Source: a virus (taxonomy: Duplodnaviria; Heunggongvirae; Uroviricota; Caudoviricetes). From it: a stretch of 21,290 nt of DNA. A program made the position numbers and the translations under genes. The DNA is taken from IMG/VR virus record IMGVR_UViG_2657244961_000005; one strand, 5' to 3'. The notes beneath the pieces are model-generated. The model saw only the letters and a program-made list of their open reading frames with translations, had not been told where the DNA came from and searched no databases. Below, in pieces: positions 1-19,651 of the stretch; position 1 is the first letter of the stretch, and each line of letters opens with the position of its first letter.

Positions 1-1284
1 TTACAGACTTCTGGAAGGTTGCGCAGCTCTTACAACACGCGGTTGATCTTCCGCAGCGTCTTCCAGCGCACTTAAATCACGGTCTTTCACTTCTGGCATT
101 TTCAGCGCAGAGATTAAACCAATCACTGAATATGCCATGATCATAATGGCGATCGGATACCAGGATTCCGTCATGGTGCAGAAAATACCCGCCAGGATAG
201 GACCAAAACCGGAAGCGATAAGACCACCAATTTCTTTAGAAATGGCCATCCGGGTAAAGCGGTTTTTACAGCCGAACATTTCTGCCATGGTAATGTTTTC
301 CAGAGCAAATAATCCCAGCACCGCACAGTTATGAATCACAATCAGTGCAACCATAATGGTGCTCGGGGCATAGCTTTTATCTACAATGATAGAAAGCATT
401 GGCCATGCCAGCACAATCGCGGAGGTATTCATAATAATATACGGGATCCGGCGACCAATTTTATCGGATAACCAACCAAGGAACGGAATGGTCATAAAGC
501 CGAGAATCGAACTAATCATCAATGCATCTGTTGGAATTGCTTTGTTAAACAATAACGTCTGCACTAAATAGCCTGCAAGGAAAGTCTGAATTAACCCGGA
601 GTTACCCGCCTGACCAAAACGCAGCCCTGTTGCCAGCCAGAAGGATTTGCTCTGGAACATGCTACCAGCAGGTGCAGGTTTTGCTGTGGGTTGGTTGCTG
701 TCATTAACCTTCTCAAAGACCGGGCTTTCTTTCAGATTCATACGTAACCAGATAGCAAAGACCATCACGACAACGCTCGCCAGGAACGGTATACGCCATC
801 CCCACGCCAGCAGTTCCTCTTTACTGAGAATGAAGAACATAAAGGCCCAGATTGCCGTTGCGCTCAAGGTTCCGCAGTTAGTTCCCATAGCTACAAATGA
901 GGAGATAATTCCGCGCTTACCTTTTGGTGCATATTCCGCCAGCATCGTACCGGCACCGGAAATTTCCGCACCTGCACCCAACCCCTGAATAATACGCAGC
1001 GTCACCAGCAAGATGGGGGCAAAAACACCAATCTGTGCATAGGTCGGTAACACACCAATTAAGGTGGTACAGATCCCCATCATGGTGATGGTAATAAAGA
1101 GCACTTTTTTACGCCCTATTCTGTCGCCCATTTTGCCGAAAATAAATGCTCCGACAATACGCGCCACATAACCTGCACCGTAGGTTCCCATTGCCAAAAT
1201 TAACGCCATTGCCGTTGATGATTCAGGAAAAAATATTTCATGAAACACCAACGCTGCGCCGAGCGAATATAACTGGAAATCCAT
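1..1284 (-). CDS. ydfJ: MFS transporter, metabolite:H+ symporter family (YdfJ-like); appears N-terminally truncated
   Basis: 427-aa ORF, multi-TM hydrophobic profile, GxxxDRxGRKK loop motif typical of MFS. Protein begins MDFQLYSLGAALVFHEIFFP, i.e. inside what is normally the first TM helix of this family, and an in-frame stop (rc of tca at 1288-1290) lies immediately upstream of the ATG. Gene symbol is from memory of K-12 YdfJ, not verified. Confidence 0.8.
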   Translation of the reverse strand: MDFQLYSLGAALVFHEIFFPESSTAMALILAMGTYGAGYVARIVGAFIFGKMGDRIGRKKVLFITITMMGICTTLIGVLPTYAQIGVFAPILLVTLRIIQGLGAGAEISGAGTMLAEYAPKGKRGIISSFVAMGTNCGTLSATAIWAFMFFILSKEELLAWGWRIPFLASVVVMVFAIWLRMNLKESPVFEKVNDSNQPTAKPAPAGSMFQSKSFWLATGLRFGQAGNSGLIQTFLAGYLVQTLLFNKAIPTDALMISSILGFMTIPFLGWLSDKIGRRIPYIIMNTSAIVLAWPMLSIIVDKSYAPSTIMVALIVIHNCAVLGLFALENITMAEMFGCKNRFTRMAISKEIGGLIASGFGPILAGIFCTMTESWYPIAIMIMAYSVIGLISALKMPEVKDRDLSALEDAAEDQPRVVRAAQPSRSL

Positions 1285-1523
1285 AATTCACAGATGTTTT
1301 TTCTCATTCTGTGGTTTCCTTGGCGCTTTCTAGGTTTTTTCAGATAGTTACATTTTTTCAAAAGCATCCTGAGTTCGATCTTACTATCTATCTGTGGCCT
1401 ATTTCTGTCCCATATATGCCCCAAAAAACACCCCAACAGATAAGCAATCTTTTCATGGTGTTACGCGTAAAAACAATAACGGCTTGAAATTATTCAATAC
1501 ACTCTCGAAAGTGCATCAGCCAA

Positions 1524-1557
1524 CCGCAGAACGTTATTGCATACAACGTTTCTGCGG
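1524..1557. repeat. Imperfect 12-bp inverted repeat (ccgcagaacgtt ... aacgtt-t-ctgcgg) with 9-nt loop
   Basis: Read directly; no flanking T-run on either strand, so not an intrinsic terminator; possible protein-binding palindrome. Confidence 0.4.
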
Positions 1558-2000
1558 CATATCACGAAACGATTACTTAATGACTGGGACTTCAGACCAC
1601 TCAATATCCGGTACAATTATGTATCAACGCAGTTTAACAACACCCTATATTTAATCCAGAGTGCGAGCAACGTTGTCCCTTTCTCTTTTGCACTCTTAAA
1701 ATATACGATTACTTAAGTGAAGATGCTTGACGAATCGCCAAATAAAACATCTTCATCAGCATAAAAATCCATATATGATTGAAAATTTAGTCATTAATAC
1801 CATTCATATCTGAATACTAACCTAATATGCTTACTAACCGTGAGAAATCTTTTTTTTCGACTTAATCACTCGAAATAAACTTTCACTCAATTGAAAACAA
1901 TTAGCTACAATTATCATTGCAATATCAAATCAAACATAACAACTTGCATAAATTCTCATGGGATACAGCATCAGTTGTGCCAAACACATAAGGAATTGAA

Positions 2001-2198
2001 ATGGACGGAGAAAGCTTTAACTTTGATGACAATGATATTGAATTTATTGCTTCAATGTATGCATCATGTAAATTATCAGGAAGTATCGCCCCCATAATGC
2101 ATATAATGGTTAGCATTCCAAAAAATAAGAAAAAACAATTCTACGAACGAGTTGAGCATTATTGTAGTTTATATTCCAATAAAAACCCACCTTCTTAA
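2001..2198 (+). CDS. Hypothetical small protein (65 aa) in AT-rich region
   Basis: ATG at 2001 preceded by AAGGA (1990-1994) with 6-nt spacing; no recognisable family. Confidence 0.25.
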   Translation: MDGESFNFDDNDIEFIASMYASCKLSGSIAPIMHIMVSIPKNKKKQFYERVEHYCSLYSNKNPPS

Positions 2199-2330
2199 AT
2201 TCGCTGCATTCTAGTGGATTCCATTAAGAAAACAATGACATACACTCAAACACATCTTTTTTATCAACAGTGAATTTCAGTTCGGCCAGTTTTTACCAGC
2301 TATTATAAAAATAGCACCCATATAAAGTTT

Positions 2331-2447
2331 TTACCCCACAGGTACAGCTGGCCATTCGATAACCGCACTAAGGAAGTGCCAACACGACATCAGCAAGACC
2401 CGATATTTCTTCCATGCCGCCAGCAACGATGTTAAGGTTAAATTAAT
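2331..2447 (-). pseudogene. Remnant of the 3' end of a second tail-fibre assembly (tfa) gene
   Basis: Minus-strand translation ...[13 protein letters not shown]...IEWPVAPVG* parallels the C-terminus of the intact Tfa at 3019-3600 (...[13 protein letters not shown]...IEWPVAPIG*); nucleotide similarity visible between 2331-2440 and 3019-3130; upstream of the remnant the sequence becomes AT-rich non-coding. Confidence 0.6.
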
Positions 2448-2902
2448 TATAAAAAAATATATTATAATTCCATCTTCGCATTAAATTTTAACCTTTAATC
2501 TCCACACGGAACAAGTTGCATAGGTGACTATATTAAGAAAACTTATAACCACCAAAAAGATTTGCTTTGCAAGCAAAAACAGTGACCATTGACTCTAAGA
2601 AAATTCCGATCTATTGTTAGTGTCATCAAAGTTACTTAACAGTATTCCGAAATGAAAATACAAAGCAAGCTAATTGTCTTATTAAACATTATCATTGCAT
2701 TTATATTATTTGAGCTTTTAGCTCAAAAATTTGGTTTGAGTACATTATTTTAAAGCAAGATAAACAATATCGGGCACTCTAGTTTTTATAATTAACAATT
2801 AAACGCCCATAAAATGTTATTTACTTTTCTTCGCTATTGTCATATCTTAATATAGTGGCTTACGCCACTCTACTTTCATCATATTTTGTACGTTTATGTA
2901 CT

Positions 2903-2935
2903 CGCCATGAAGCTCTTTCATGGCGATTTTTTATT
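2903..2935 (+). terminator. Putative rho-independent terminator (plus strand)
   Basis: Perfect 9-bp stem cgccatgaa/ttcatggcg with 5-nt loop, followed by ATTTTTTATT. Confidence 0.4.
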
Positions 2936-3018
2936 CTTAATCCAAGAACATACTCCCTACCTATAGAAAAATCACTTTTTGAACAAAAGAATAACGTATT
3001 TAGGTAATCATTACGAAT

Positions 3019-3600
3019 TTACCCTATAGGTGCTACTGGCCATTCAATATCCGGTGCAGTTGTTGTATTAACACGGTTCAGCAACACCCGATACTTCTTC
3101 CAGGCTTCCAGCAACGAGATTTCTTCCTCCGTTGCAATTTCCAGATCTGCAGCATCCTGAAGCGGCGCAATATGCTCACTGGCTACCTGCATCAGGTTGT
3201 TTTTTGTTTCTTCCGCCTCCCGGATCCGGAACAGTTTTTCTGCTTCCGTATCCTTCACCCAGGCTGTGCCGTTCCACTTCTGATATTCCCCTTCCGGCGA
3301 TAACCAGGTGACATTTTCCGGTAACGAGCCAAGTTCAGAAATAAATAACGCGTCGCCGGAAGCCACGTCATAGACGGTTTTTCCCCGATGATCTTCAACG
3401 AGATGCCACGATGCCTCATCACTGTTGAAAACAGCCACAAAGCCAGCCGGAATATCTGGCGGTGCAATATCGGTACTGTTTGCTGGCAGACCTGTATGAG
3501 GCGGAATATATGCGTCACCTTCACCAATAAATTCATTAGTTCCGGCCAGCAGATTATAAATTTTTATGGTCCGTGGTTGTTCACTCATTCTGAATGCCAT
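3019..3600 (-). CDS. Tail fibre assembly protein (Tfa family)
   Basis: 193-aa ORF; translation [24 protein letters not shown]...EWPVAPIG matches the lambdoid Tfa chaperone family from memory; ATG overlaps stop of upstream tail-fibre ORF (TAATG). Confidence 0.9.
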
Positions 3601-5297
3601 TATGCAAGCCTCACAATATAGTTAAATGCGATGTTTTTGACGGTGTTTTCCGCGTTACCAGCAGCGTTAACGGTGATGGTGTGTCCATGTGAACCAATCG
3701 CAACGGAGTGCGTGTGTGCACCAATACCGACAGTATGTGCGTGTGCACCTGCAGATGCTGCTGTGCCGGACAGTGAGTGGCTATGGTTACCATCTGTACT
3801 GGTATTAGCTAACGCCCCCGTAGACATACCTACTGAGCCTTGTACACCCCAGGTATTTTGACCTGAGCTTGTATAACCATATTGATAAGTATCTTTAAAA
3901 ACACTGGGGTTAAATCGACGGCCATCTCTATGGCTGTGATTACCAGCTGCATTCGTGCTGCCACTTAAACTATGGGTATGCGCACCAGTGTTATTCGTGG
4001 ATTTAGTGCCGTAATCAAACGACGATGTGGTTTTCGTCCCCAAATCAGTACTGGATGCGCTGGCGCTGTGGGTATGCGATTTTATGCCGTCCTGTTCCTG
4101 AGACAATACGGCACGACCACTGGCGGGCTTGCCCTTAATCGTCCAGCCACGCATATCAGGGATCACGCCTGACGGATAAGCGGCTGCAAGTTTCGGGTAG
4201 GCAGATTTGTCAAAAGTCTGCCCCTGCATCAGGGCATAACCAGACGGAACGGTATCTGATGGCCACGGGATTGGTGCGCCGACTGGGTAGCTTTCTGGTG
4301 GAAGATTTTTCGAGGTATAAACTTCTGCCCAGTCTTCCTCAAAACCATAACCGTCTCTTGAAGAACGGTAGAACAGACCACCATTTCTGTAATGCGCCTT
4401 CATCTGCAAGGTCCGGCAACTTCCGACTCCGGTATAGAAGTTAACCAGAATATAGCTGTCGCCAGAGCGGGTGACATTATAAGCGCCTGATTCGGCATTC
4501 CAGGGAACGCCACCATCCGCATCGGCATATGTATCCGTTGCCCTTCTGGCAAAAGCAGCCACATGCGCGGCGGTTAAAGTAATATCTTTGGAACCATCAA
4601 ACTCAACACCAGAAACCCGTCTTGGCGTTTGCAGCTTTGTTGCTGTTAATGCATTACCGTTCAGACTTGCGGACAGTTTGGTTCCAATAACCAGTTCGCC
4701 GGTTGCGTTATCAATAGCAAACGGTCTTAATGTATTCCAGCCACCATAAACATCACCTTGATTGGTAAGCAGCAGGTAAGTTTTAGCGCCATCATTACGC
4801 CATAATGCCCCATACTCCCCACCTATCATTCGAATCTGATTACCACCACGCGCTACAATTTCGTCTGTGGCAAAAAGTTTTTTGCACGACAAGTTATCGT
4901 TAACGATTAATGAATGAGACTCATAAAAACCACGCCCACTCTTAAAATCAAGGATAACGTCCGCCGCGATACATTCAGTCGCCGGATTTGTTGCCCCAAA
5001 CTTATAGGTCGTATCATTAACAACGAGATCAGCACCAGGTGCGGATATTGACAGGCCATCTTCGATAAACGCAAAAACAGGGAAAGCAGCGCCATCAACA
5101 TAGAACACAGAGCGCAAATCATCGCCCTTATTACTCATCATTATTGAGTGGATGGCTCGTTCATTGTTTTGATATTGCCAGAACATTCCATAAGCATAAC
5201 GCCCCCTGTCAGTCCAGCCACCAGGCATAACAAATCCGTTATTCGAGCAACCCACCAGCGATATCAGCAGGAACAGGCAGATCACAGGTTTTTTCAC
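3600..5297 (-). CDS. Chimeric side tail fibre protein: lipoprotein-type signal peptide plus unknown ~200-aa region fused to side-tail-fibre distal domain
   Basis: 565-aa ORF; GTG start at 5297 with GGGAG about 10 nt upstream; N-terminus [17 protein letters not shown] has an n-region, hydrophobic core and L-V-G-C lipobox; C-terminal ~350 aa carries His-rich GAHTHS/GNHSHS/GAHAHT repeats typical of lambdoid Stf distal domains; start overlaps 3' end of spanin-like gene by 59 nt. Confidence 0.75.
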
Positions 5298-5562
5298 GGC
5301 GGAGAATCTCCCGGTATTCGATTACGGTTTTTTCGGTGCTGGTGTCGATCAGGGAGTTAAGACTGTTGGCATGTTCTGCAACCTGATTGAATCGATTGAA
5401 GTTGAATGCCTGGGTGGCGATTACCTGCCCCAGCATAGAGTTGTCACTTCGCAGAACGTCGTTATCGCTCTGAAGATTACTGGCGTAAGAGCAACTCTTG
5501 ACGAGAGCGACCGAAAGGCCAGCAATAACGACAACGCCTATAAGATCCGGATTAATTTTCAT
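5239..5562 (-). CDS. Putative i-spanin (Rz-like): N-terminal TM segment plus periplasmic helical region
   Basis: ATG at 5562 overlaps lysozyme stop (ATGA); translation [21 protein letters not shown]... has a single N-terminal TM helix followed by a polar, probably helical region; position immediately after endolysin. Confidence 0.5.
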
Positions 5563-7260: not shown

Positions 7261-7656
7261 CTAACCTCGCATGTCAAAGCCAGATTTCTGAAAATCTCTG
7301 TAGACTTCCGGATTGTTGAAGGCCGGAAATTTGGCTTTATGAGCTGCGGACTTTATCGCTTCGCAATAGGCTTTATCACCGTTACTGGTAGATATTTTTA
7401 ACGCCGTGCCATCCTGAGAGAATTCCATATGCAACCTGCATTTTTTCCCTTTCCAGTTATGCGGCTCATCAAGTTTGGCATTAATTGCAGCTCTGATTCC
7501 CCGCGCTTGCGCCCCCCATTCATCCTGATCATCCCAGCGTCCTGAACTGCAACTACCTGTAGCAGTAGTTTTGTGGCAATCTGAAGGGTGTAAAGGTGTG
7601 CATCCCGCAACAAAACCGACCCAAAAAGTCAACATAACGATTTTCTTTAATCCCAC
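7261..7656 (-). CDS. Lipoprotein with TolA C-terminal-domain-like region (paralog 1)
   Basis: 131 aa; GTG start at 7656 with GAGGAG 6 nt upstream; signal peptide with lipobox VAGC; C-terminal ...KCRLHMEFSQDG...CEAIKSAAHKAKFPAFNNPEVYRDFQKSGFD aligns with paralog 2. Confidence 0.7.
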   Translation of the reverse strand: MGLKKIVMLTFWVGFVAGCTPLHPSDCHKTTATGSCSSGRWDDQDEWGAQARGIRAAINAKLDEPHNWKGKKCRLHMEFSQDGTALKISTSNGDKAYCEAIKSAAHKAKFPAFNNPEVYRDFQKSGFDMRG

Positions 7657-7806: not shown

Positions 7807-8235
7807 TCAGGGTTTAAAATCCAGCACCCCATTTTGAAATACTTTATATACTTCCGGCGAAGGGGGGGCAGGTATATCAGCATTCTTTATCGCATTCATC
7901 GCTTCACGACATAAATCGAGGTCTCCACTTTCTCTTTTAACCTCCAGTAGAAGGCCATTCGGGGCCATATGCATTCTCAGTGTACACTCTTTTCCTGAAT
8001 ACTTACTCGCATCCCCGAACTGTTTTTCGATGGCGCTCTTGATTTGATGGGCATACAGACGGATATCCTCACTAACATCAGAAGTACGTTCAGATGAACT
8101 CACATACTGTGTCTCTATTGCTTTATCGGAGTAATATGATGTACGGTCATGATAATTTGTCGATACAGCATCAGTGCACCCGATAATAATCCCACTAATA
8201 ATCAACGTAAGAATTGATGCGCTACGAAAACCCAT
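7807..8235 (-). CDS. Lipoprotein with TolA domain III-like C-terminus (paralog 2)
   Basis: 142 aa; ATG at 8235 with GAGGA about 5 nt upstream; lipobox IIGC; C-terminus YAHQIKSAIEKQFGDASKYSGKECTLRMHMAPNGLLLEVKRESGDLDLCREAMNAIKNADIPAPPSPEVYKVFQNGVLDFKP closely parallels the E. coli TolA C-terminal domain as I recall it (...YAGQIKSAIESKFYDASSYAGKTCTLRIKLAPDGMLLDIKPEGGDPALCQAALAAAKLAKIPKPPSQAVYEVFKNAPLDFKP). Confidence 0.75.
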   Translation of the reverse strand: MGFRSASILTLIISGIIIGCTDAVSTNYHDRTSYYSDKAIETQYVSSSERTSDVSEDIRLYAHQIKSAIEKQFGDASKYSGKECTLRMHMAPNGLLLEVKRESGDLDLCREAMNAIKNADIPAPPSPEVYKVFQNGVLDFKP

Positions 8236-9232: not shown

Positions 9233-9309
9233 TGGCGCGCTGTACTGGATTCGAACCAGTGACCGATTGCTTAGAAGGCAATTGCTCTGTCCGGCTGAGC
9301 TAACAACGC
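9233..9309 (-). tRNA. tRNA-Arg (anticodon UCU), phage-encoded
   Basis: 77-nt cloverleaf folded by hand: acceptor GCGTTGT/ACAGCGC, D-arm GCTC..GAGC, anticodon stem ATTGC/GCAAT with loop CTTCTAA, T-arm ACTGG-TTCGAAT-CCAGT, discriminator G, encoded CCA. Confidence 0.85.
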
Positions 9310-9417: not shown

Positions 9418-9493
9418 TGGTGGCCCTTGCTGGATTTGAACCAGCGACCTGGCGATTATGAGTCGCTCGCTCTCACCACTGAGCTAAAGGACC
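9418..9493 (-). tRNA. tRNA with CAU anticodon (Met or lysidine-Ile2 type; resembles phage ileZ-type tRNA)
   Basis: 76-nt cloverleaf: acceptor GGTCCTT/AAGGGCC, D-arm GCTCAGTGGTGAGAGC, anticodon loop CTCATAA, T-arm GCTGG-TTCAAAT-CCAGC, discriminator A, encoded CCA. Confidence 0.85.
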
Positions 9494-9636: not shown

Positions 9637-10458
9637 TTACCTAGTTACCTTTTTTAACTGCCGCTCAGCCCATGCTTCTTCAATATCAAACCGGGTCACC
9701 AGCGCATCATAGAATTTCTTAACTGTTTTTTCCCATGACGCGCGTGTTATCTGGTTTGTCACCTCGCATATAGCATTAAATGCCTCCGTTGATGGTAGTC
9801 TTTCATAGCCACGACCACCACAACGCTGGCAGTCTCTGATAACAGGCATACCACGTTTTACCGACTCTTCACGGTGAATGGCGACACCACGCCCACGGCA
9901 ATCCTTACAGGCGGTGGAAACCTCACCCTTTCCGCCACACTCCGGACAGGCAACTTTTACCACCTCCCTGACTTTTTTCCATTCTTCCCAGTAAGACGGA
10001 TACACACCTTTCGTACACTTTGCCCATACCGGCGGCTTACCATCCGGATACTGGACCTTGTTTGTAAAAACTACGCTTTCAATAAATTTTTCCCCATAGC
10101 AACAAGGGCACTGCTTTTTACTCGCTGCGCTGCGGGCATAATCCTCAAAAGCGTACGAAGCCATAATGCGCATCACTAACGGTTTTATTTCTGCCGGAAG
10201 TTTTCTCAACGCCGCCACACGATCGCACCGACTGAGTGCATAATCTGCCAGTAATTCTGTTGCCCGCGCCCTGTCATTCATACTGATGCCCATTTTCCCC
10301 AGGAACGCAGAAAACCCCATCTCAGCCCGATTCTGTGTCATGCCCTGCGCGGCCATCACATCAGTGATACTCAGCGCATCTTTTGACGTTGAGGCCGATG
10401 CATCGGTCAGGCAAGGGGATTTTGGGGAGTAGTATTTCGGTAAATCTTCCAGTTTCAT
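9637..10458 (-). CDS. Late-gene antiterminator Q-like protein with Cys-rich zinc-finger motifs
   Basis: 273 aa; CPCC...CPECGGKG...CKDCRGRG...CQRCGGRG motifs; position between RusA and the late promoter/tRNAs/lysis genes; 4-nt overlap with rusA (ATGA). Confidence 0.75.
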   Translation of the reverse strand: MKLEDLPKYYSPKSPCLTDASASTSKDALSITDVMAAQGMTQNRAEMGFSAFLGKMGISMNDRARATELLADYALSRCDRVAALRKLPAEIKPLVMRIMASYAFEDYARSAASKKQCPCCYGEKFIESVVFTNKVQYPDGKPPVWAKCTKGVYPSYWEEWKKVREVVKVACPECGGKGEVSTACKDCRGRGVAIHREESVKRGMPVIRDCQRCGGRGYERLPSTEAFNAICEVTNQITRASWEKTVKKFYDALVTRFDIEEAWAERQLKKVTR

Positions 10459-13402: not shown

Positions 13403-14404
13403 TTAGTAATCTGCGTATTTCGCACTTTTCAGAAATGCTTTCATATTTTCATTAGGTCGCTCAATTTCGAAGTTACTTCCATATAACTCTTGTAATTTTG
13501 GCCATAACTTACTTAATAACCCTCTCCTGCGATAAAATGGATGTATCCAAACGGTAGATAGGTACGGAGAATTTGCATTTGAATTGTTTATTGTGACCAG
13601 CCCAACTAAACATTGTCGATAACCACTATTATCCATTGATTGTATTTCTTCGACGAATGGATACGCGATTACATCAGTCCAACCATGATCGGTTGTATCC
13701 CATTGCATTCCGTCATGACATTCCTTCGACTGATAGCGGCGTAAAGCTACACACGCGAGCTTTTGCCAATCTGGAGAATTAATTGTGATCTCTTCATCGT
13801 ATGACGCGCCTATTGGAGCGGGTATTGGTCTGATTAATCCAGCATGGCATTCATCATAGAACTTCATGTTTCCCTCAGAAACGTTGTGTACGTTGGGTTG
13901 CTCCATGTGTGCGCCATTCAAAAATAGCTCTGATAGTAGTGTATCTACACTGTAATCTTTATTGATTATTGTCGGCTTAGAGTTTTTCTTATTAAGGCCG
14001 CGAGTAACGATTTTTTGATCAATGTTAACAACATGGAATAATCCGTCGGGGAGACTAGCGAACCACGATGGGGCATCGGACCAGAATAGCATGCCTTTTG
14101 TACTTCTTAAGAGTTTAATTAAGTTAATACAAGCTTCTTCACTAGTCTTGCCGTTGATGCGAAGTATGTTAGGACTAAAGTAATATTCATCCATATCAGG
14201 GAATGCAGCTTCGCAAAACTCCTGTACATAATTTAGCACCTGGATTCTACAGAGATCATCATAGCTGGTAATAACTAAGGGGATATCTTCATTACTATTA
14301 TGATTATCAATAATGCAATCTATAGCGAGACTTACTGCTTTGCGTATCACTTCAGTTGAATCTAACGACTCTAAAAATTTTGTCTTTCGTGTGCGAATAT
14401 CCAT
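13403..14404 (-). CDS. Cassette gene B: unknown N-terminal domain plus C-terminal GNAT-like acetyltransferase fold (inferred)
   Basis: 333 aa; ATG at 14404, 15 nt after the stop of gene A; markedly AT-rich (about 25-35% GC in sampled 60-nt stretches versus about 50% in flanking phage genes); C-terminal ...YLSTVWIHPFYRRRGLLSKL...NENMKAFLKSAKY resembles GNAT motif A and the C-terminal helix. Confidence 0.7.
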   Translation of the reverse strand: MDIRTRKTKFLESLDSTEVIRKAVSLAIDCIIDNHNSNEDIPLVITSYDDLCRIQVLNYVQEFCEAAFPDMDEYYFSPNILRINGKTSEEACINLIKLLRSTKGMLFWSDAPSWFASLPDGLFHVVNIDQKIVTRGLNKKNSKPTIINKDYSVDTLLSELFLNGAHMEQPNVHNVSEGNMKFYDECHAGLIRPIPAPIGASYDEEITINSPDWQKLACVALRRYQSKECHDGMQWDTTDHGWTDVIAYPFVEEIQSMDNSGYRQCLVGLVTINNSNANSPYLSTVWIHPFYRRRGLLSKLWPKLQELYGSNFEIERPNENMKAFLKSAKYADY

Positions 14405-14419
14405 GTATGACCTGCGCTA

Positions 14420-15442
14420 TTAAAATTCATGAATGAACGGTTTGTCATCTGGTTGCAAAATGGTGGTTTTATTCGTTGCTACATTTAAACTGTTGTAGAG
14501 CATAATTGCCAGGTTCGATGCATTTTCAATCAGCGTTTCAAGATCCTGGTCTGTAATCACTACGAGGTTCCCTTCTTTATCCTTTCCACCACGATGCACT
14601 AAGTGATTTCGATTGAGGGTTGCCAATTCAATAGCTTCTATCGGACAGTCTTTTTGTACTTTTATATCGAATGTAGCTTCATAGCGGTCGATTACCTTTT
14701 TAGTGCTATGCCAGCTTGCACTGATCAAGTGTTCCTTGATTGACCTGATTAGCTCTCCCCTAATTTTCTCGATGGGTTCACCCTTGAAAGGCAACGCAGC
14801 AATATCTTTGCTTACTTTAAATTCAGTCTTACCTTTTTCTATACAATTGGCTATGTAGACATCATCTTTCTCTATAGAATTAATGAATAGCTCAACATAA
14901 AGCGTTTCCAAAGCTGTAATAACATTCGTGTAGAGCAAACTAAGCAAGTGGTTTTTTTGCTGTTGTTCAGTTTTATCTTTTGCAAGTTTTTTTATTTTAT
15001 CGATATTATCAATGAATTTTAAATACGGATTACCGGAAGACGTTACAGCGTCGTAGATATCATCATCGTACCAATCATCTATATTATTTGAGTTTCCAGA
15101 CCAGTCAAAACATTGTGTTTGTAATTCATCTACTAATTCCTCAATATACTCAGATTTAACATATTGACCGAAGATGGATTGTAGTTCTTCGCTCGCATCA
15201 TACGGCCCGCCATATATGTAAGCATAGCCACCTTCTCTACTTTCATACGGACAAGCATTTGCCGGATCTTCAAAGTTTTCAAAGAACCAGTTTTTCATTA
15301 CTTCGAGTTGATCTTTTTTGCTTATGTATTTTAAAGATTTTAGTGGAACTTTCTTTCCATTAACCTCGAAAACAATTTTCACGATGTAACGCTCCCTTGT
15401 ATCAATTGCGCAACTATTATACCACAGCGAAATACAGGGCAT
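14420..15442 (-). CDS. Cassette gene A: unknown protein with possible C-terminal HEPN-like Rx4H motif (inferred)
   Basis: 340 aa from ATG at 15442, which is preceded by a near-consensus SD AAGGAGG with 6-nt spacing (the ORF-track extension to 15532 is not supported); AT-rich; motif NRNHLVHRGG (R-x4-H) within a helical-looking C-terminal region. Confidence 0.7.
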   Translation of the reverse strand: MPCISLWYNSCAIDTRERYIVKIVFEVNGKKVPLKSLKYISKKDQLEVMKNWFFENFEDPANACPYESREGGYAYIYGGPYDASEELQSIFGQYVKSEYIEELVDELQTQCFDWSGNSNNIDDWYDDDIYDAVTSSGNPYLKFIDNIDKIKKLAKDKTEQQQKNHLLSLLYTNVITALETLYVELFINSIEKDDVYIANCIEKGKTEFKVSKDIAALPFKGEPIEKIRGELIRSIKEHLISASWHSTKKVIDRYEATFDIKVQKDCPIEAIELATLNRNHLVHRGGKDKEGNLVVITDQDLETLIENASNLAIMLYNSLNVATNKTTILQPDDKPFIHEF

Positions 15443-15573
15443 AACCTGCCTCCTTAAACTAACATACCATGAGCCAGCAATGTCCGCTATTGGCACAAAG
15501 CGGACAACCACGCTAGCTCTACCCTGTGCCACAAAATGTCAATTTGCATCTGAACTAATGCACTTTAATCTCG

Positions 15574-17178: not shown

Positions 17179-17604
17179 TCAATGTACTGCCACAGCATTT
17201 CCTGCCGGGCCACCACGGTTCATCTGATTGAAACCGGCGATTGCCACTGCGACAAAATCATCAGCGTCTCTCACCAGTCGCTCCCGCGTCTCCACCAGCT
17301 CCCGAAAATAAGCTGAACTGTGGCTGCGCATTCTGGCCACCAGCAAAGGTGGCATTGCCTTTTCGATCGCTGGTAACAACGCCTGAATTTTTTCAACTGC
17401 ATCAGGGGTGTCTTTCTCTATCCAGCGGAAAATTTTCTGGGTATTGCGAGCCAGGGCTTCCGGATGGCTGTCGTCGTACAGTTCAGGAAACGTCATACCC
17501 AACTCAAAATAAGCCTGGGTTATTCCAGCTGCCGGAACTTTTTCGCCATCAGGACGCGCCCAGGCATTCATCGCCATGCGGATGTGTTCATGCTTGATTT
17601 TCAT
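17179..17604 (-). CDS. YdaT-like phage protein (putative regulator/toxin family)
   Basis: 141 aa from ATG at 17604 (MKIKHEHIRMAMNAW...) with AGGGGGG-type SD; family assignment from memory of Rac YdaT. Confidence 0.55.
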   Translation of the reverse strand: MKIKHEHIRMAMNAWARPDGEKVPAAGITQAYFELGMTFPELYDDSHPEALARNTQKIFRWIEKDTPDAVEKIQALLPAIEKAMPPLLVARMRSHSSAYFRELVETRERLVRDADDFVAVAIAGFNQMNRGGPAGNAVAVH

Positions 17605-17632
17605 GAATCCCCCCTTGGTTAGAAGGCGGATT

Positions 17633-19651
17633 ATGATCAGAACCGGGAATGACAACCGTCGGTATGTGTATCCGGAGCTTAAGTTGCACGCCATTGGGTG
17701 GGTTAAGCATAAATGTATTCCTGGTGCTAAATGGCCCGAAATTCAGGCAGAGATGCGCATCTGGAAAAAACGTCGCGAAGGTGAACGCAAGGAAACCGGA
17801 AAATACACGTCTGTTGTTGATCTCGCCCGCGCCAGAACCAATCAACAGTACACTGAAAATTCAACAGGAAAAATCAGCCCGGTCATTGCTGCCATTCATC
17901 GCGAATACAAGCAGACATGGAAAACACTGGATGACGAACTGGCCTACGCTCTCTGGCCTGGTGATGTGGATGCCGGAAACATTGACGGCAGCATCCATCG
18001 CTGGGCAAAAAAAGAAGTTATCGACAACGACCGCGAAGACTGGAAGCGTATCTCGGCATCAATGCGCAAACAGCCTGATGCCCTTCGCTACGACCGCCAG
18101 ACTATTTTTGGCCTTGTCCGTGAGCGTCCGATCGACATTCACAAAGATCCCATAGCACTGAACAAATATATCTGCGAATACCTGACGACAAAGGGCGTGT
18201 TTGAGAATGAAGAAACAGACCTGGGCACTGTTGATGTTCTCCAGTCATCAGAAACACAAACTGATGCAGTGGAAACTGAGGTATCTGATATCCCAAAAAA
18301 TGAAACCGCGCCGGAAGCTGAACCATCTGTAGAGCGTGAGGGGCCGTTCTATTTCCTCTTCGCAGATAAGGACGGAGAAAAATACGGTCGCGCAAACAAA
18401 CTTTCTGGTCTGGATAAGGCACTGGCTGCTGGCGCCACTGAAATCACAAAAGAAGAATATTTTGCCCGAAAAAATGGCACATACACGGGCTTACCGCAAA
18501 ATGTAGATACCGCTGAAGATTCAGAACAACCAGAGCCGATAAAAGTTACCGCTGACGAAGTAAACAAAATTATGCAGGCAGCCAATATCAGCCAGCCTGA
18601 CGCCGATGAACTGCTTGCAGTATCACGTGGTGAATTTGTTGAAGGGATTAGCGACCCGAATGATCCGAAATGGATTAAGGGGATCCAGACCCGCGATTCT
18701 GTGAACCAGAACCAGCAAGAAACGGAACAGAACGACCAGAAAGCGGAACAAAACAGCCCAAATACGCAACAAAACGAGCCAGAAACGAAACAACCTGAAC
18801 CAGTAGTGCAACAGGAACCGGAAAAGATCTGCACCGCCTGCGGTCAGAGCGGTGGCGGCAACTGCCCTGATTGTGGTGCGGTGATGGGTGACGCAACATA
18901 CCAGGAAATATTCGATGGAGAGAATCAGCCTGAAGTTCAGGAAAATGATCCGGAGGAAATGGAAGGCACTGCGCATCAGCACAAGGAGAACACTGGCGGC
19001 AATCAGCATCATGCCAGCGATAGTGAAACTGGCGAGGCGTCAGATCCCTTAATTAAGGCAAACGGTCATCATAATCTCACATCCACCAGCAGAGCGGGGA
19101 TTCATCTGATGATCGACCTTGAAACCATGGGAAAAAATCCCGATGCCCCGATTATCTCAATAGGTGCAATATTTTTCGATCCGCAAACCGGAGATATGGG
19201 ACCGGAATTTAGTAAGACTATCGATCTGGAAACTGCTGGCGGAGTCATTGATCGGGACACCATTAAATGGTGGCTTAAACAATCACGCGAAGCGCAATCT
19301 GCCATTATGACCGATGAAATCCCGTTAGATGATGCACTGTTACAATTGCGGGAATTTATCGACGAAAACTCCGGTGAATTTTTTGTTCATGTCTGGGGAA
19401 ATGGAGCCAACTTCGACAACACGATTTTGCGCCGTTCATACGAACGGCAGGAGATCCCCTGCCCGTGGCGTTACTACAACGATCGCGATGTACGCACAAT
19501 CGTTGAGCTGGGGAAAGCCATAGACTTCGATGCCAGAACGGCTATTCCATTCGAAGGTGAGCGCCATAATGCACTTGATGACGCCCGTTACCAGGCAAAA
19601 TACGTTTCAGTTATCTGGCAAAAACTGATCCCGAGTCAGGCTGATTCTTAA
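17633..19651 (+). CDS. Chimeric exonuclease: RecE-like N-terminal/middle region, Q/E-rich linker, Cys4 motif, C-terminal DEDDh (DnaQ-like) 3'-5' exonuclease domain
   Basis: 672 aa from ATG at 17633 (AAGG SD); segment DELLAVSRGEFVEGISDPNDPKWIKGIQTRD resembles RecE as I recall it; CTACGQSGGGNCPDCG motif; exo motifs MIDLETMG, GNGANFD and HNALDDARY. Confidence 0.75.
   Translation: MIRTGNDNRRYVYPELKLHAIGWVKHKCIPGAKWPEIQAEMRIWKKRREGERKETGKYTSVVDLARARTNQQYTENSTGKISPVIAAIHREYKQTWKTLDDELAYALWPGDVDAGNIDGSIHRWAKKEVIDNDREDWKRISASMRKQPDALRYDRQTIFGLVRERPIDIHKDPIALNKYICEYLTTKGVFENEETDLGTVDVLQSSETQTDAVETEVSDIPKNETAPEAEPSVEREGPFYFLFADKDGEKYGRANKLSGLDKALAAGATEITKEEYFARKNGTYTGLPQNVDTAEDSEQPEPIKVTADEVNKIMQAANISQPDADELLAVSRGEFVEGISDPNDPKWIKGIQTRDSVNQNQQETEQNDQKAEQNSPNTQQNEPETKQPEPVVQQEPEKICTACGQSGGGNCPDCGAVMGDATYQEIFDGENQPEVQENDPEEMEGTAHQHKENTGGNQHHASDSETGEASDPLIKANGHHNLTSTSRAGIHLMIDLETMGKNPDAPIISIGAIFFDPQTGDMGPEFSKTIDLETAGGVIDRDTIKWWLKQSREAQSAIMTDEIPLDDALLQLREFIDENSGEFFVHVWGNGANFDNTILRRSYERQEIPCPWRYYNDRDVRTIVELGKAIDFDARTAIPFEGERHNALDDARYQAKYVSVIWQKLIPSQADS

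Follow-up and report, generated by a model that had tools for sequence, protein, structure and literature searches.

The locus analysed here raises the question of whether an open reading frame (ORF) that starts with a lipoprotein signal and ends as a phage tail fibre encodes a genuine lipid-anchored fibre or a fusion left behind by a deletion. The ORF lies in a 21,290-nt stretch of a Caudoviricetes record (IMG/VR IMGVR_UViG_2657244961_000005), the whole of which is referred to below as the window.

A lipoprotein signal followed by a tail-fibre tip

Re-examination of the sequence bore out the features that a preliminary description had reported for this ORF, namely a lipoprotein signal with the lipobox LVGC, a 59-nt overlap with the spanin gene and a His-rich fibre end. 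Its N-terminus carries K2, K3 and a hydrophobic core followed by the lipobox L-V-G-C with Cys17, which satisfies the PROSITE-type lipoprotein rule and the lipobox consensus [LVI][ASTVI][GAS]C (PMC6139136). The overlap with the Rz-like ORF, which ends at 5239, covers positions 5239 to 5297. The native start and a Shine-Dalgarno-like GGGAG are kept, the frame is open for all 565 codons, and the C-terminus is rich in His (14 in the last 167 residues, with seven HxH motifs). As reported, no morphogenesis genes separate the lysis cassette from the fibre. Terminase, portal, capsid and tail-shaft genes could not be found in the rest of the window either, which has the integrase at one end and what is left of the host gene ydfJ at the other.

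The coordinates of the relevant features are collected in Table 1. The Q-type antiterminator acts upstream, as regulator of the late operon to which the fusion ORF belongs. The mechanical ORF of the holin runs to 7066. A search with NCBIfam returned nothing useful.

Table 1 Features of the window and sequences at the deletion junction (the slash marks the join).
Feature	Position	Strand	Remarks
ydfJ', host MFS transporter gene cut by prophage insertion, prophage end	1..1284	minus	PGAP ydfJ 'missing N-terminus'; same arrangement in K-12
tfaQ, tail-fibre assembly chaperone, intact, 193 aa	3019..3600	minus	Pfam Caudo_TAP E=3e-42; PGAP tfaQ
Fusion ORF, 565 aa	3600..5297	minus	GTG start
stf 3' portion	3600..5239	minus	Residues 132-678 of 678 of mEp332 Stf
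Truncated Rz-like i-spanin	5239..5562	minus	107 of 178 aa; TMD and proximal periplasmic part kept
Deletion junction	5240..5241	minus	2-nt TA microhomology common to both parents; breakpoint ambiguous within TA
Rz1 (o-spanin) 5' remnant	5242..5297	minus	GTG start, signal peptide, lipobox LVGC, Cys17, Ser18 and most of the Asn19 codon; fusion codons 1-19
rrrQ-type endolysin, 180 aa	5559..6101	minus	Pfam Phage_lysozyme E=1e-23; PGAP rrrQ
Class II holin, EssD/P21 S type, 71 aa	6794..7009	minus	Pfam Phage_holin_2_1 E=2e-35; gene calls in identical loci
Q-type late antiterminator	9637..10458	minus	PGAP 'antitermination protein' and Pfam Antiterm in identical loci
Second, independent deletion junction, early region	17667..17670		Query halves meet at q251-254
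Rz/Rz1 parent (strain 1943) at the join			...GGGTTGCTCGAATA/CACGTACCG...
stf parent (mEp332) at the join			...AACTGCGAGTTTA/ACGGATTTG...
Window at the join			...GGGTTGCTCGAATA/ACGGATTTG...

The two parts meet at a 2-nt microhomology

A 1-kb query across the ORF start, compared by blastn with 50,697 phage records, split cleanly in two. Query positions 1-461 matched the lysozyme and Rz-like spanin of mEp237 (92%) and its relatives, positions 460-1001 matched the stf of mEp332, Kati, PhiR34_1, 2H10 and ev099 (99.4-99.8%), and the halves met at window position 5240/5241. None of the 50,697 records covered 80% or more of the query. Three- and four-way alignments resolved the join as GAATA/ACGG (...TGCTCGAATA/ACGGATTTG...). 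Neither an IS element nor any repeat longer than the TA was found at the junction, leading to rejection of an IS-mediated deletion; the TA microhomology is a signature of illegitimate, microhomology-mediated joining.

The reading frame is kept across the join, since window position 5241, which completes the Asn19 codon, is the third position of fusion codon 19 and its counterpart is the third position of codon 131 of the mEp332 stf. Read from its sequence, the ORF is Rz1(1-19) joined in frame to Stf(132-678). In the Rz frame the same join creates GAA-TAA, ending Rz after residue 107. The clean split of the query, the base-level join, the preserved frame and the roughly 21 kb that separate the breakpoints in a full-length relative (see below) all support the initial proposal that a large deletion created an in-frame fusion of an Rz1-like 5' end with the 3' part of stf.

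Full-length proteins with the same architecture in intact phages, which the preliminary description had named as the observation that would speak against a deletion, were looked for in the 50,697 phage records and not found. A tblastn search of these records with the first 80 residues detected no phage encoding residues 1-11 attached to this fibre segment, and all protein matches began at residues 12-17, inside long fibres. That alignments can start at Cys17 is a coincidence, the parental Stf reading N-C-E-F-N-G-F and the fusion G-C-S-N-N-G-F. On the combined blastn and tblastn results, a genuine lipoprotein-anchored fibre in phages was rejected.

Both spanin genes are truncated

Residues 1-19 of the fusion were identical (19/19) to the start of the 48-aa embedded Rz1 of a prophage that E. 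coli strain 1943 carries at the same site, ydfJ, and 17 of the 19 were shared with the Rz1 of mEp237; on the Rz/Rz1 side, the DNA was identical to that of strain 1943 up to the junction. Given this identity with an authentic embedded o-spanin gene of a related full-length prophage, the lipoprotein signal is, as judged from the sequence, not a chance resemblance. The spanins of strain 1943 are intact (Rz, 178 aa; Rz1, 48 aa), its Rz1 matching phrog_456 (Rz-like spanin), and the 171-aa Rz of mEp237 contains an embedded +1-frame ORF that is a typical short Pro-rich o-spanin. The Rz1 reading frame is embedded +1 inside Rz, and the start of the fusion ORF has the same +1 arrangement.

The signal part of an o-spanin is complete in the window, with the lipobox, the Cys and a start located within Rz just downstream of the endolysin gene. 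The mature domain, a Pro-rich stretch of about 30-40 aa that includes a periplasmic Cys and binds the i-spanin by its C-terminal part, is not, and Cys17-Ser18-Asn19 alone remain of it; fusion residues 18-60, which are Stf from residue 20 on, contain one Pro versus TRTVYVPAPCTPIPADLMKPMIVPLPPAQ of the intact Rz1. The Rz remnant does not have the full-length TMD and periplasmic coiled-coil of an i-spanin, having 107 aa versus 171-178 aa in intact relatives. It is 93% identical to residues 1-107 of the mEp237 Rz, matches phrog_214 at positions 14-113 of 176 and is labelled 'incomplete; missing C-terminus' by PGAP. Spanin function needs the C-terminal interaction between Rz and Rz1 (PMC6139136). 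With Rz deprived of its distal 71 residues, which form the distal periplasmic domain, and Rz1 of its entire mature domain, both subunits are presumably dead.

The rest of the fusion is the shaft and tip of Stf

The preliminary description had considered the ~200 residues after the lipobox not recognisably Stf. This did not hold, because the Pfam domain Gp34_trimer lies within them (residues 96-195) and the stf part is 99.8% identical in nucleotides to the stf of mEp332, Kati and 2H10 over its first 542 nt, from fusion residue 20 on. An unexplained middle segment of 200 aa was therefore rejected: Stf starts at residue 20 and not at ~215. By BLASTP, fusion residues 17-565 aligned with residues 129-678 of the 678-aa Stf of mEp332 with 91% identity over 554 aa, the differences being confined to a hypervariable patch at residues ~444-504 (window about 3797-3965).

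The domain order is that of a fibre, with matches to the Pfam families Gp34_trimer, gp37_C, Collar and Phage_fiber. A gp34-type trimerisation module (Gp34_trimer, E=1e-27; PDB 4UXE/5NXF, residues 139-210) is followed by a segment similar to the Mu/P1 S fibre (residues 246-340; PDB 8JU3), a collar domain (residues 340-387) and a T4 gp37 receptor-binding tip (residues 335-565 match PDB 2XGF, E=3e-85). In the 2XGF structure of Bartual et al. 2010, the gp37 needle reportedly coordinates seven iron ions via HxH motifs, and we take the seven HxH motifs of the fusion to fit such a needle.

All PHROG matches of the fusion fall in the C-terminal parts of longer profiles, and PGAP labels the fibre gene 'missing N-terminus'. 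The C-terminal shaft and receptor-binding tip of a Stf are thus present, with tfaQ immediately downstream, and the N-terminal tail-attachment domain is not, the alignment with mEp332 Stf beginning at its residue 129-132; intact genes with the same stf segment are annotated 'prophage tail fiber N-terminal domain-containing'. Because the 131-residue attachment domain is missing and no tail is encoded, the fibre fragment should be unable to join a virion.

A full-length relative at the same site and the extent of the deletion

The strain 1943 prophage lies between rspB and ydfJ'. Its early region has the order int, xis, exo, dicB and immunity region, hokD, rem, DUF968, rusA and Q; its late region runs from holin, ydfR, rrrQ and Rz/Rz1 through small and large terminase, portal, protease-capsid, tail genes, tape measure, L, K, I, J and lom; and it ends with stf, tfaQ, a 65-aa ORF and ydfJ'. 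Homology of the window to this prophage stops at position 943 of the strain 1943 locus (L005), in Rz, and resumes at position 23957, in stf; from window position 3796 to 1 the two are 98.7% identical, through tfaQ into ydfJ'. The estimated loss is about 21 kb (21.2 kb, calculated from the strain 1943 gene order and an mEp332-type stf), from the terminase through J and lom. The stf of strain 1943 is longer and differs over the segment matching window 4659-5239 (N-terminal and middle part), and this prophage was rejected as the exact ancestor; it is a model for gene order and deletion size only.

A second deletion affected the early region. Here the exonuclease gene, of which residues 163-823 remain, has lost its 5' part and now abuts the 3' end of a cro-like gene plus ydaT, and the repressor/immunity (cI/cro), early-promoter and dicB region is gone. 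This second junction was spanned in only 16 of the 5,426 complete E. coli genomes surveyed. The window does not contain what a functional lambdoid prophage has, namely terminase, portal, capsid, tail, tail-tip and immunity genes.

In the sequence of events that we propose, a lambdoid Qin-like prophage between rspB and ydfJ would have lost its morphogenesis segment by one internal deletion, comprising the 3' spanin region, terminase, portal, capsid and tail genes, J, lom and the tail-attachment N-terminus of Stf. As each breakpoint fell on a third codon position, Stf 132-678 would then be read in direct continuation of the Rz1 signal peptide and lipobox, under the ribosome-binding site and start codon of Rz1.

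Distribution of the junction and its probable single origin

A 241-nt query across the junction was compared with the same 5,426 complete E. coli genomes, and the full junction was matched in 60 of them, always in the same chromosomal context. About 1,360 other matching genomes contained one half only, either the Rz half (q1-124) or the stf half (q120-241), and the stf half was always located within long fibre genes annotated 'prophage tail fiber N-terminal domain-containing'; the stfR of the K-12 Rac prophage matches it at 98.4%. The exact 565-aa protein was found on 574 contigs in public collections. All 24 of the contigs examined share the context rrrQ, Rz' (107 aa), fusion, tfaQ, 65-aa ORF and ydfJ', differing only by IS66 or IS3 insertions and by further upstream deletions, and the junction-bearing loci are ~100% identical in DNA. 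These results indicate a single historical event in one lineage or locus, amid continuing decay.

PGAP already marks both halves, the Rz remnant and the fibre, as pseudogenes. In strain CUPS TF 6/1_01, the 3' end of the fusion ORF, called by PGAP from the GTG start, is interrupted by an IS3, which we count as support for the ORF being dispensable.

Expression and fate of the product

The fusion is probably barely expressed, as its late operon depends on Q and the cascade leading to Q is probably broken by the loss of the immunity region and early promoter. Bacterial lipoproteins are exported by Sec, processed at the Cys by Lgt, LspA and Lnt, and transported by Lol to the outer membrane when Ser is at position +2. 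If translated, the fusion would be expected to undergo Sec export and lipidation at Cys17 and, with Ser at +2, to reach the outer membrane. Folding of the trimeric fibre normally takes place in the cytoplasm with the help of Tfa. Tfa has no signal peptide, and the exported fusion, separated from it, would likely misfold and undergo degradation. A biological value of the locus is likely in one respect only, as an stf'-tfa cassette with which incoming lambdoid phages could recombine; in lambda, recombination with the stf-tfa of the defective prophages Qin and Rac occurs at about 2x10^-6 (PMC3945230).

We consider that, in all likelihood, the fusion ORF is a by-product of ordinary prophage decay and not a new kind of protein. 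Some points count against pure decay, namely the full open frame, the native start, the widespread protein (574 contigs) and the claim made for StfE2, a chimeric Stf remnant of the cryptic prophage e14; neutral decay is not proven.

The alternative in which the fusion was co-opted, with a lipid-anchored receptor-binding fibre fragment in the envelope masking the fibre receptor or hindering adsorption and so causing superinfection exclusion, appears very unlikely. It could draw on the intact ORF with its authentic o-spanin signal, lipobox and Ser at +2, on the complete gp37-like receptor-binding tip accompanied by an intact tfaQ chaperone gene, on the frequency of the allele (60/5,426 genomes; 574 contigs) and on StfE2, claimed to block T2 adsorption (PMC12529663), as a precedent. 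However, the integrity of the ORF says nothing about selection, given that the chance of an in-frame join is one in three and that the loci of the carriers are ~100% identical. The frequency also traces back to one origin, every copy having one junction in one context, and one strain has an IS3 inside the ORF. An exported fibre would be out of reach of Tfa as a chaperone, since Tfa has no signal peptide. The late operon is probably without its activating cascade, and the design is absent from phages (50,697 records). PADLOC also argues against such a role: the PADLOC-DB defence profiles gave no match to the fusion protein at E<=1e-3, and membership in a defence system was rejected on this basis. 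PADLOC was equally negative for two TolA-like lipoproteins and the cargo ORFs of the window. It is highly improbable that the deletion created an exported lipid-anchored tail-fibre tip (outer-membrane or periplasmic) that was retained in the E. coli lineage for hiding or disturbing the receptor of the fibre and so excluding related phages, as a signal-peptide-equipped counterpart of StfE2, and no specific support for exaptation of an exported Stf tip was found here.

It also seems quite implausible that there was no deletion, the stf'-tfa cassette having come to lie beside the lysis cassette through recombination with some other phage or prophage, in an element in which no morphogenesis module had ever stood at that place. 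The stf is indeed a mosaic, mEp332-like here and with a different proximal part in strain 1943, the best full-length relative at the site, and this segment is also part of Rac-type stfR genes at other places in E. coli genomes, but mosaic stf alleles are the norm in lambdoid phages. Moreover, the genes (Rz ... stf-tfaQ-65-aa ORF-ydfJ') follow exactly the order and orientation seen in the full-length prophage at the site, to which the window is nearly identical from position 3796 to position 1, and the two breakpoints are intragenic and share only 2 nt of homology, a pattern typical of internal illegitimate deletions. That the contig is chimeric through an artefact of assembly or sequencing is an idea with nothing specific in its favour beyond the joining of two repeated prophage modules; it has next to no probability and was refuted by the identical junction in 60 independent complete genomes and the exact protein on 574 contigs from many projects.

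As a product of decay, the locus offers a base-resolved example of how a cryptic prophage degenerates: one deletion at a 2-nt microhomology took the morphogenesis module and both spanin genes, a later one took the immunity region, and IS elements gathered around. For annotation, such a 'lipoprotein tail fibre' is a pseudogene fusion and not a new class of fibre. The retained stf'-tfaQ, with its complete gp37-like tip, is a plausible donor of a host-range module for infecting lambdoid phages. The fusion would rise above the routine only if shown to be expressed and phage-excluding.

Comparison with known systems

With the embedded two-component spanin Rz/Rz1 (mEp237 type; PHROG 214 / 456; DUF2514-type i-spanin), the locus shares the first 107 residues of Rz and the first 19 of Rz1, at 93-100% identity and with the +1 embedding. 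Unlike that system, it is without the distal 71 aa of Rz and the remaining 29 mature residues of Rz1, a Pro-rich stretch containing the periplasmic Cys, and the C-terminal Rz-Rz1 interaction that defines the complex cannot form (PMC6139136).

Compared with the Stf of mEp332, Kati and 2H10, which have a T4 gp37-like tip (2XGF), fusion residues 20-565 are the Stf shaft and tip, near-identical outside the hypervariable patch and carrying the seven HxH motifs and the collar domain, but the 131 N-terminal attachment residues are replaced by a lipoprotein signal peptide.

The StfE2 of e14 is, like the fusion, a chimeric protein derived from the stf fragment of a cryptic prophage. It differs in arising by reversible Pin-mediated inversion, in having no signal peptide and in having experimental phenotypes (PMC12529663), whereas the fusion arose by an irreversible deletion, carries a lipoprotein signal and is known here from sequence alone.

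The cryptic prophage Qin of E. coli K-12 (rzpQ/rzoQ ... nohA'-'stfQ-tfaQ-pinQ) is the closest described entity. The ydfJ insertion site is common to both elements, their late genes are of the same family (Q, holin, YdfR, rrrQ, Rz-like, tfaQ), and in both the morphogenesis module was lost by an internal deletion that left a 3' stf fragment and tfa. In Qin, however, the deletion joins nohA (small terminase) to stfQ and spares rzpQ/rzoQ, whereas in the window element the upstream breakpoint lies inside Rz/Rz1, so that both spanin genes were destroyed and the Rz1 signal was fused to Stf. The window element is also without pinQ, ydfK and the cold-shock morons and has an extra deletion in the early region. 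It is an independent deletion derivative of the Qin prophage family.

A second deletion and further decay

Besides the deletion that joined Rz1 (the o-spanin gene) in frame to the side-tail-fibre gene stf, creating the fusion ORF, the window carries a second internal deletion, in its early region (table). The 3'-5' exonuclease gene at this junction lacks ~162 codons at its 5' end and now adjoins the 3' end of a cro-like gene and a ydaT-family gene, and the cI/cro immunity region, the early promoters and the dicB region are therefore missing from the window. Among 5,426 complete E. coli genomes, only 16 carried this second junction and 60 the Rz1-stf junction, which suggests that the early-region deletion is a later decay step. 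One sub-lineage of fusion carriers has thus undergone an even larger deletion in the early region: its integrase gene directly adjoins a truncated DUF968 gene, as in the related genome GCA_049465455.1 (locus L008, 72-2455). In other carriers, IS66 or IS3 insertions separate the holin gene from the TolA-like genes.

Features of the window outside the Rz1-stf junction
Feature	Position	Strand	Details
Conserved hypothetical ORF, 65 aa	2001-2198	+	WP_000348576.1
Hypervariable patch, gp37-like tip of fusion ORF	3797-3965	-	residues ~444-504
Two tandem small lipoprotein genes	7261-7656; 7807-8235	-	Pfam PF06519
tRNA-Arg(TCT); CAT-anticodon tRNA	9233-9309; 9418-9493	-	ARAGORN, PGAP
Two neighbouring cargo ORFs (333 and 370 aa)	13403-14404; 14420-15532	-	
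Second internal deletion	17576-17700		junction ~17667-17670, exonuclease gene abutting cro-like 3' end

Accessory genes

The tandem lipoproteins, beginning MGLKKIVMLTFWVGFVAGC... and MGFRSASILTLIISGIIIGC..., are encoded between Q (the late antiterminator gene) with the tRNA genes and the holin gene, and each contains a TolA C-terminal domain (E=1e-14 and 2e-23). One possible role is that of morons: as mimics of TolA domain III they may hamper colicins or filamentous phages that rely on Tol. A PADLOC search returned no match for either, and one copy is interrupted by IS elements in related strains. Both tRNA genes are carried by the prophage downstream of Q; such a rare-codon pair is usual in the late regions of lambdoid and Stx-type phages. 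ARAGORN assigns the CAT-anticodon tRNA to Met, and PGAP assigns it to Ile in identical loci.

Pfam matches of the two cargo ORFs all stayed below threshold (GNAT, E~9e-4; HEPN/RES N-terminal domain 1, E~2e-4), and PADLOC and NCBIfam gave none; together they may form an uncharacterised pair with an accessory or defence role. Strain 1943, whose full-length prophage occupies the ydfJ site, has other genes at this position.

The fibre tip

The patch in the fibre tip differs from the stf of both phage mEp332 and strain 1943, with flanks on both sides 95-99% identical, and is a typical mosaic receptor-specificity insert. The tip of this fibre therefore probably has a receptor specificity unlike that of mEp332. 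The tip is also non-invertible, since the 1.7-kb gap between the tail-fibre chaperone gene tfaQ and ydfJ' (1285-3018), where the 65-aa ORF is the sole content, lacks both the pinQ invertase gene and ydfK, which K-12 Qin, a cryptic prophage inserted in the same site, carries there.
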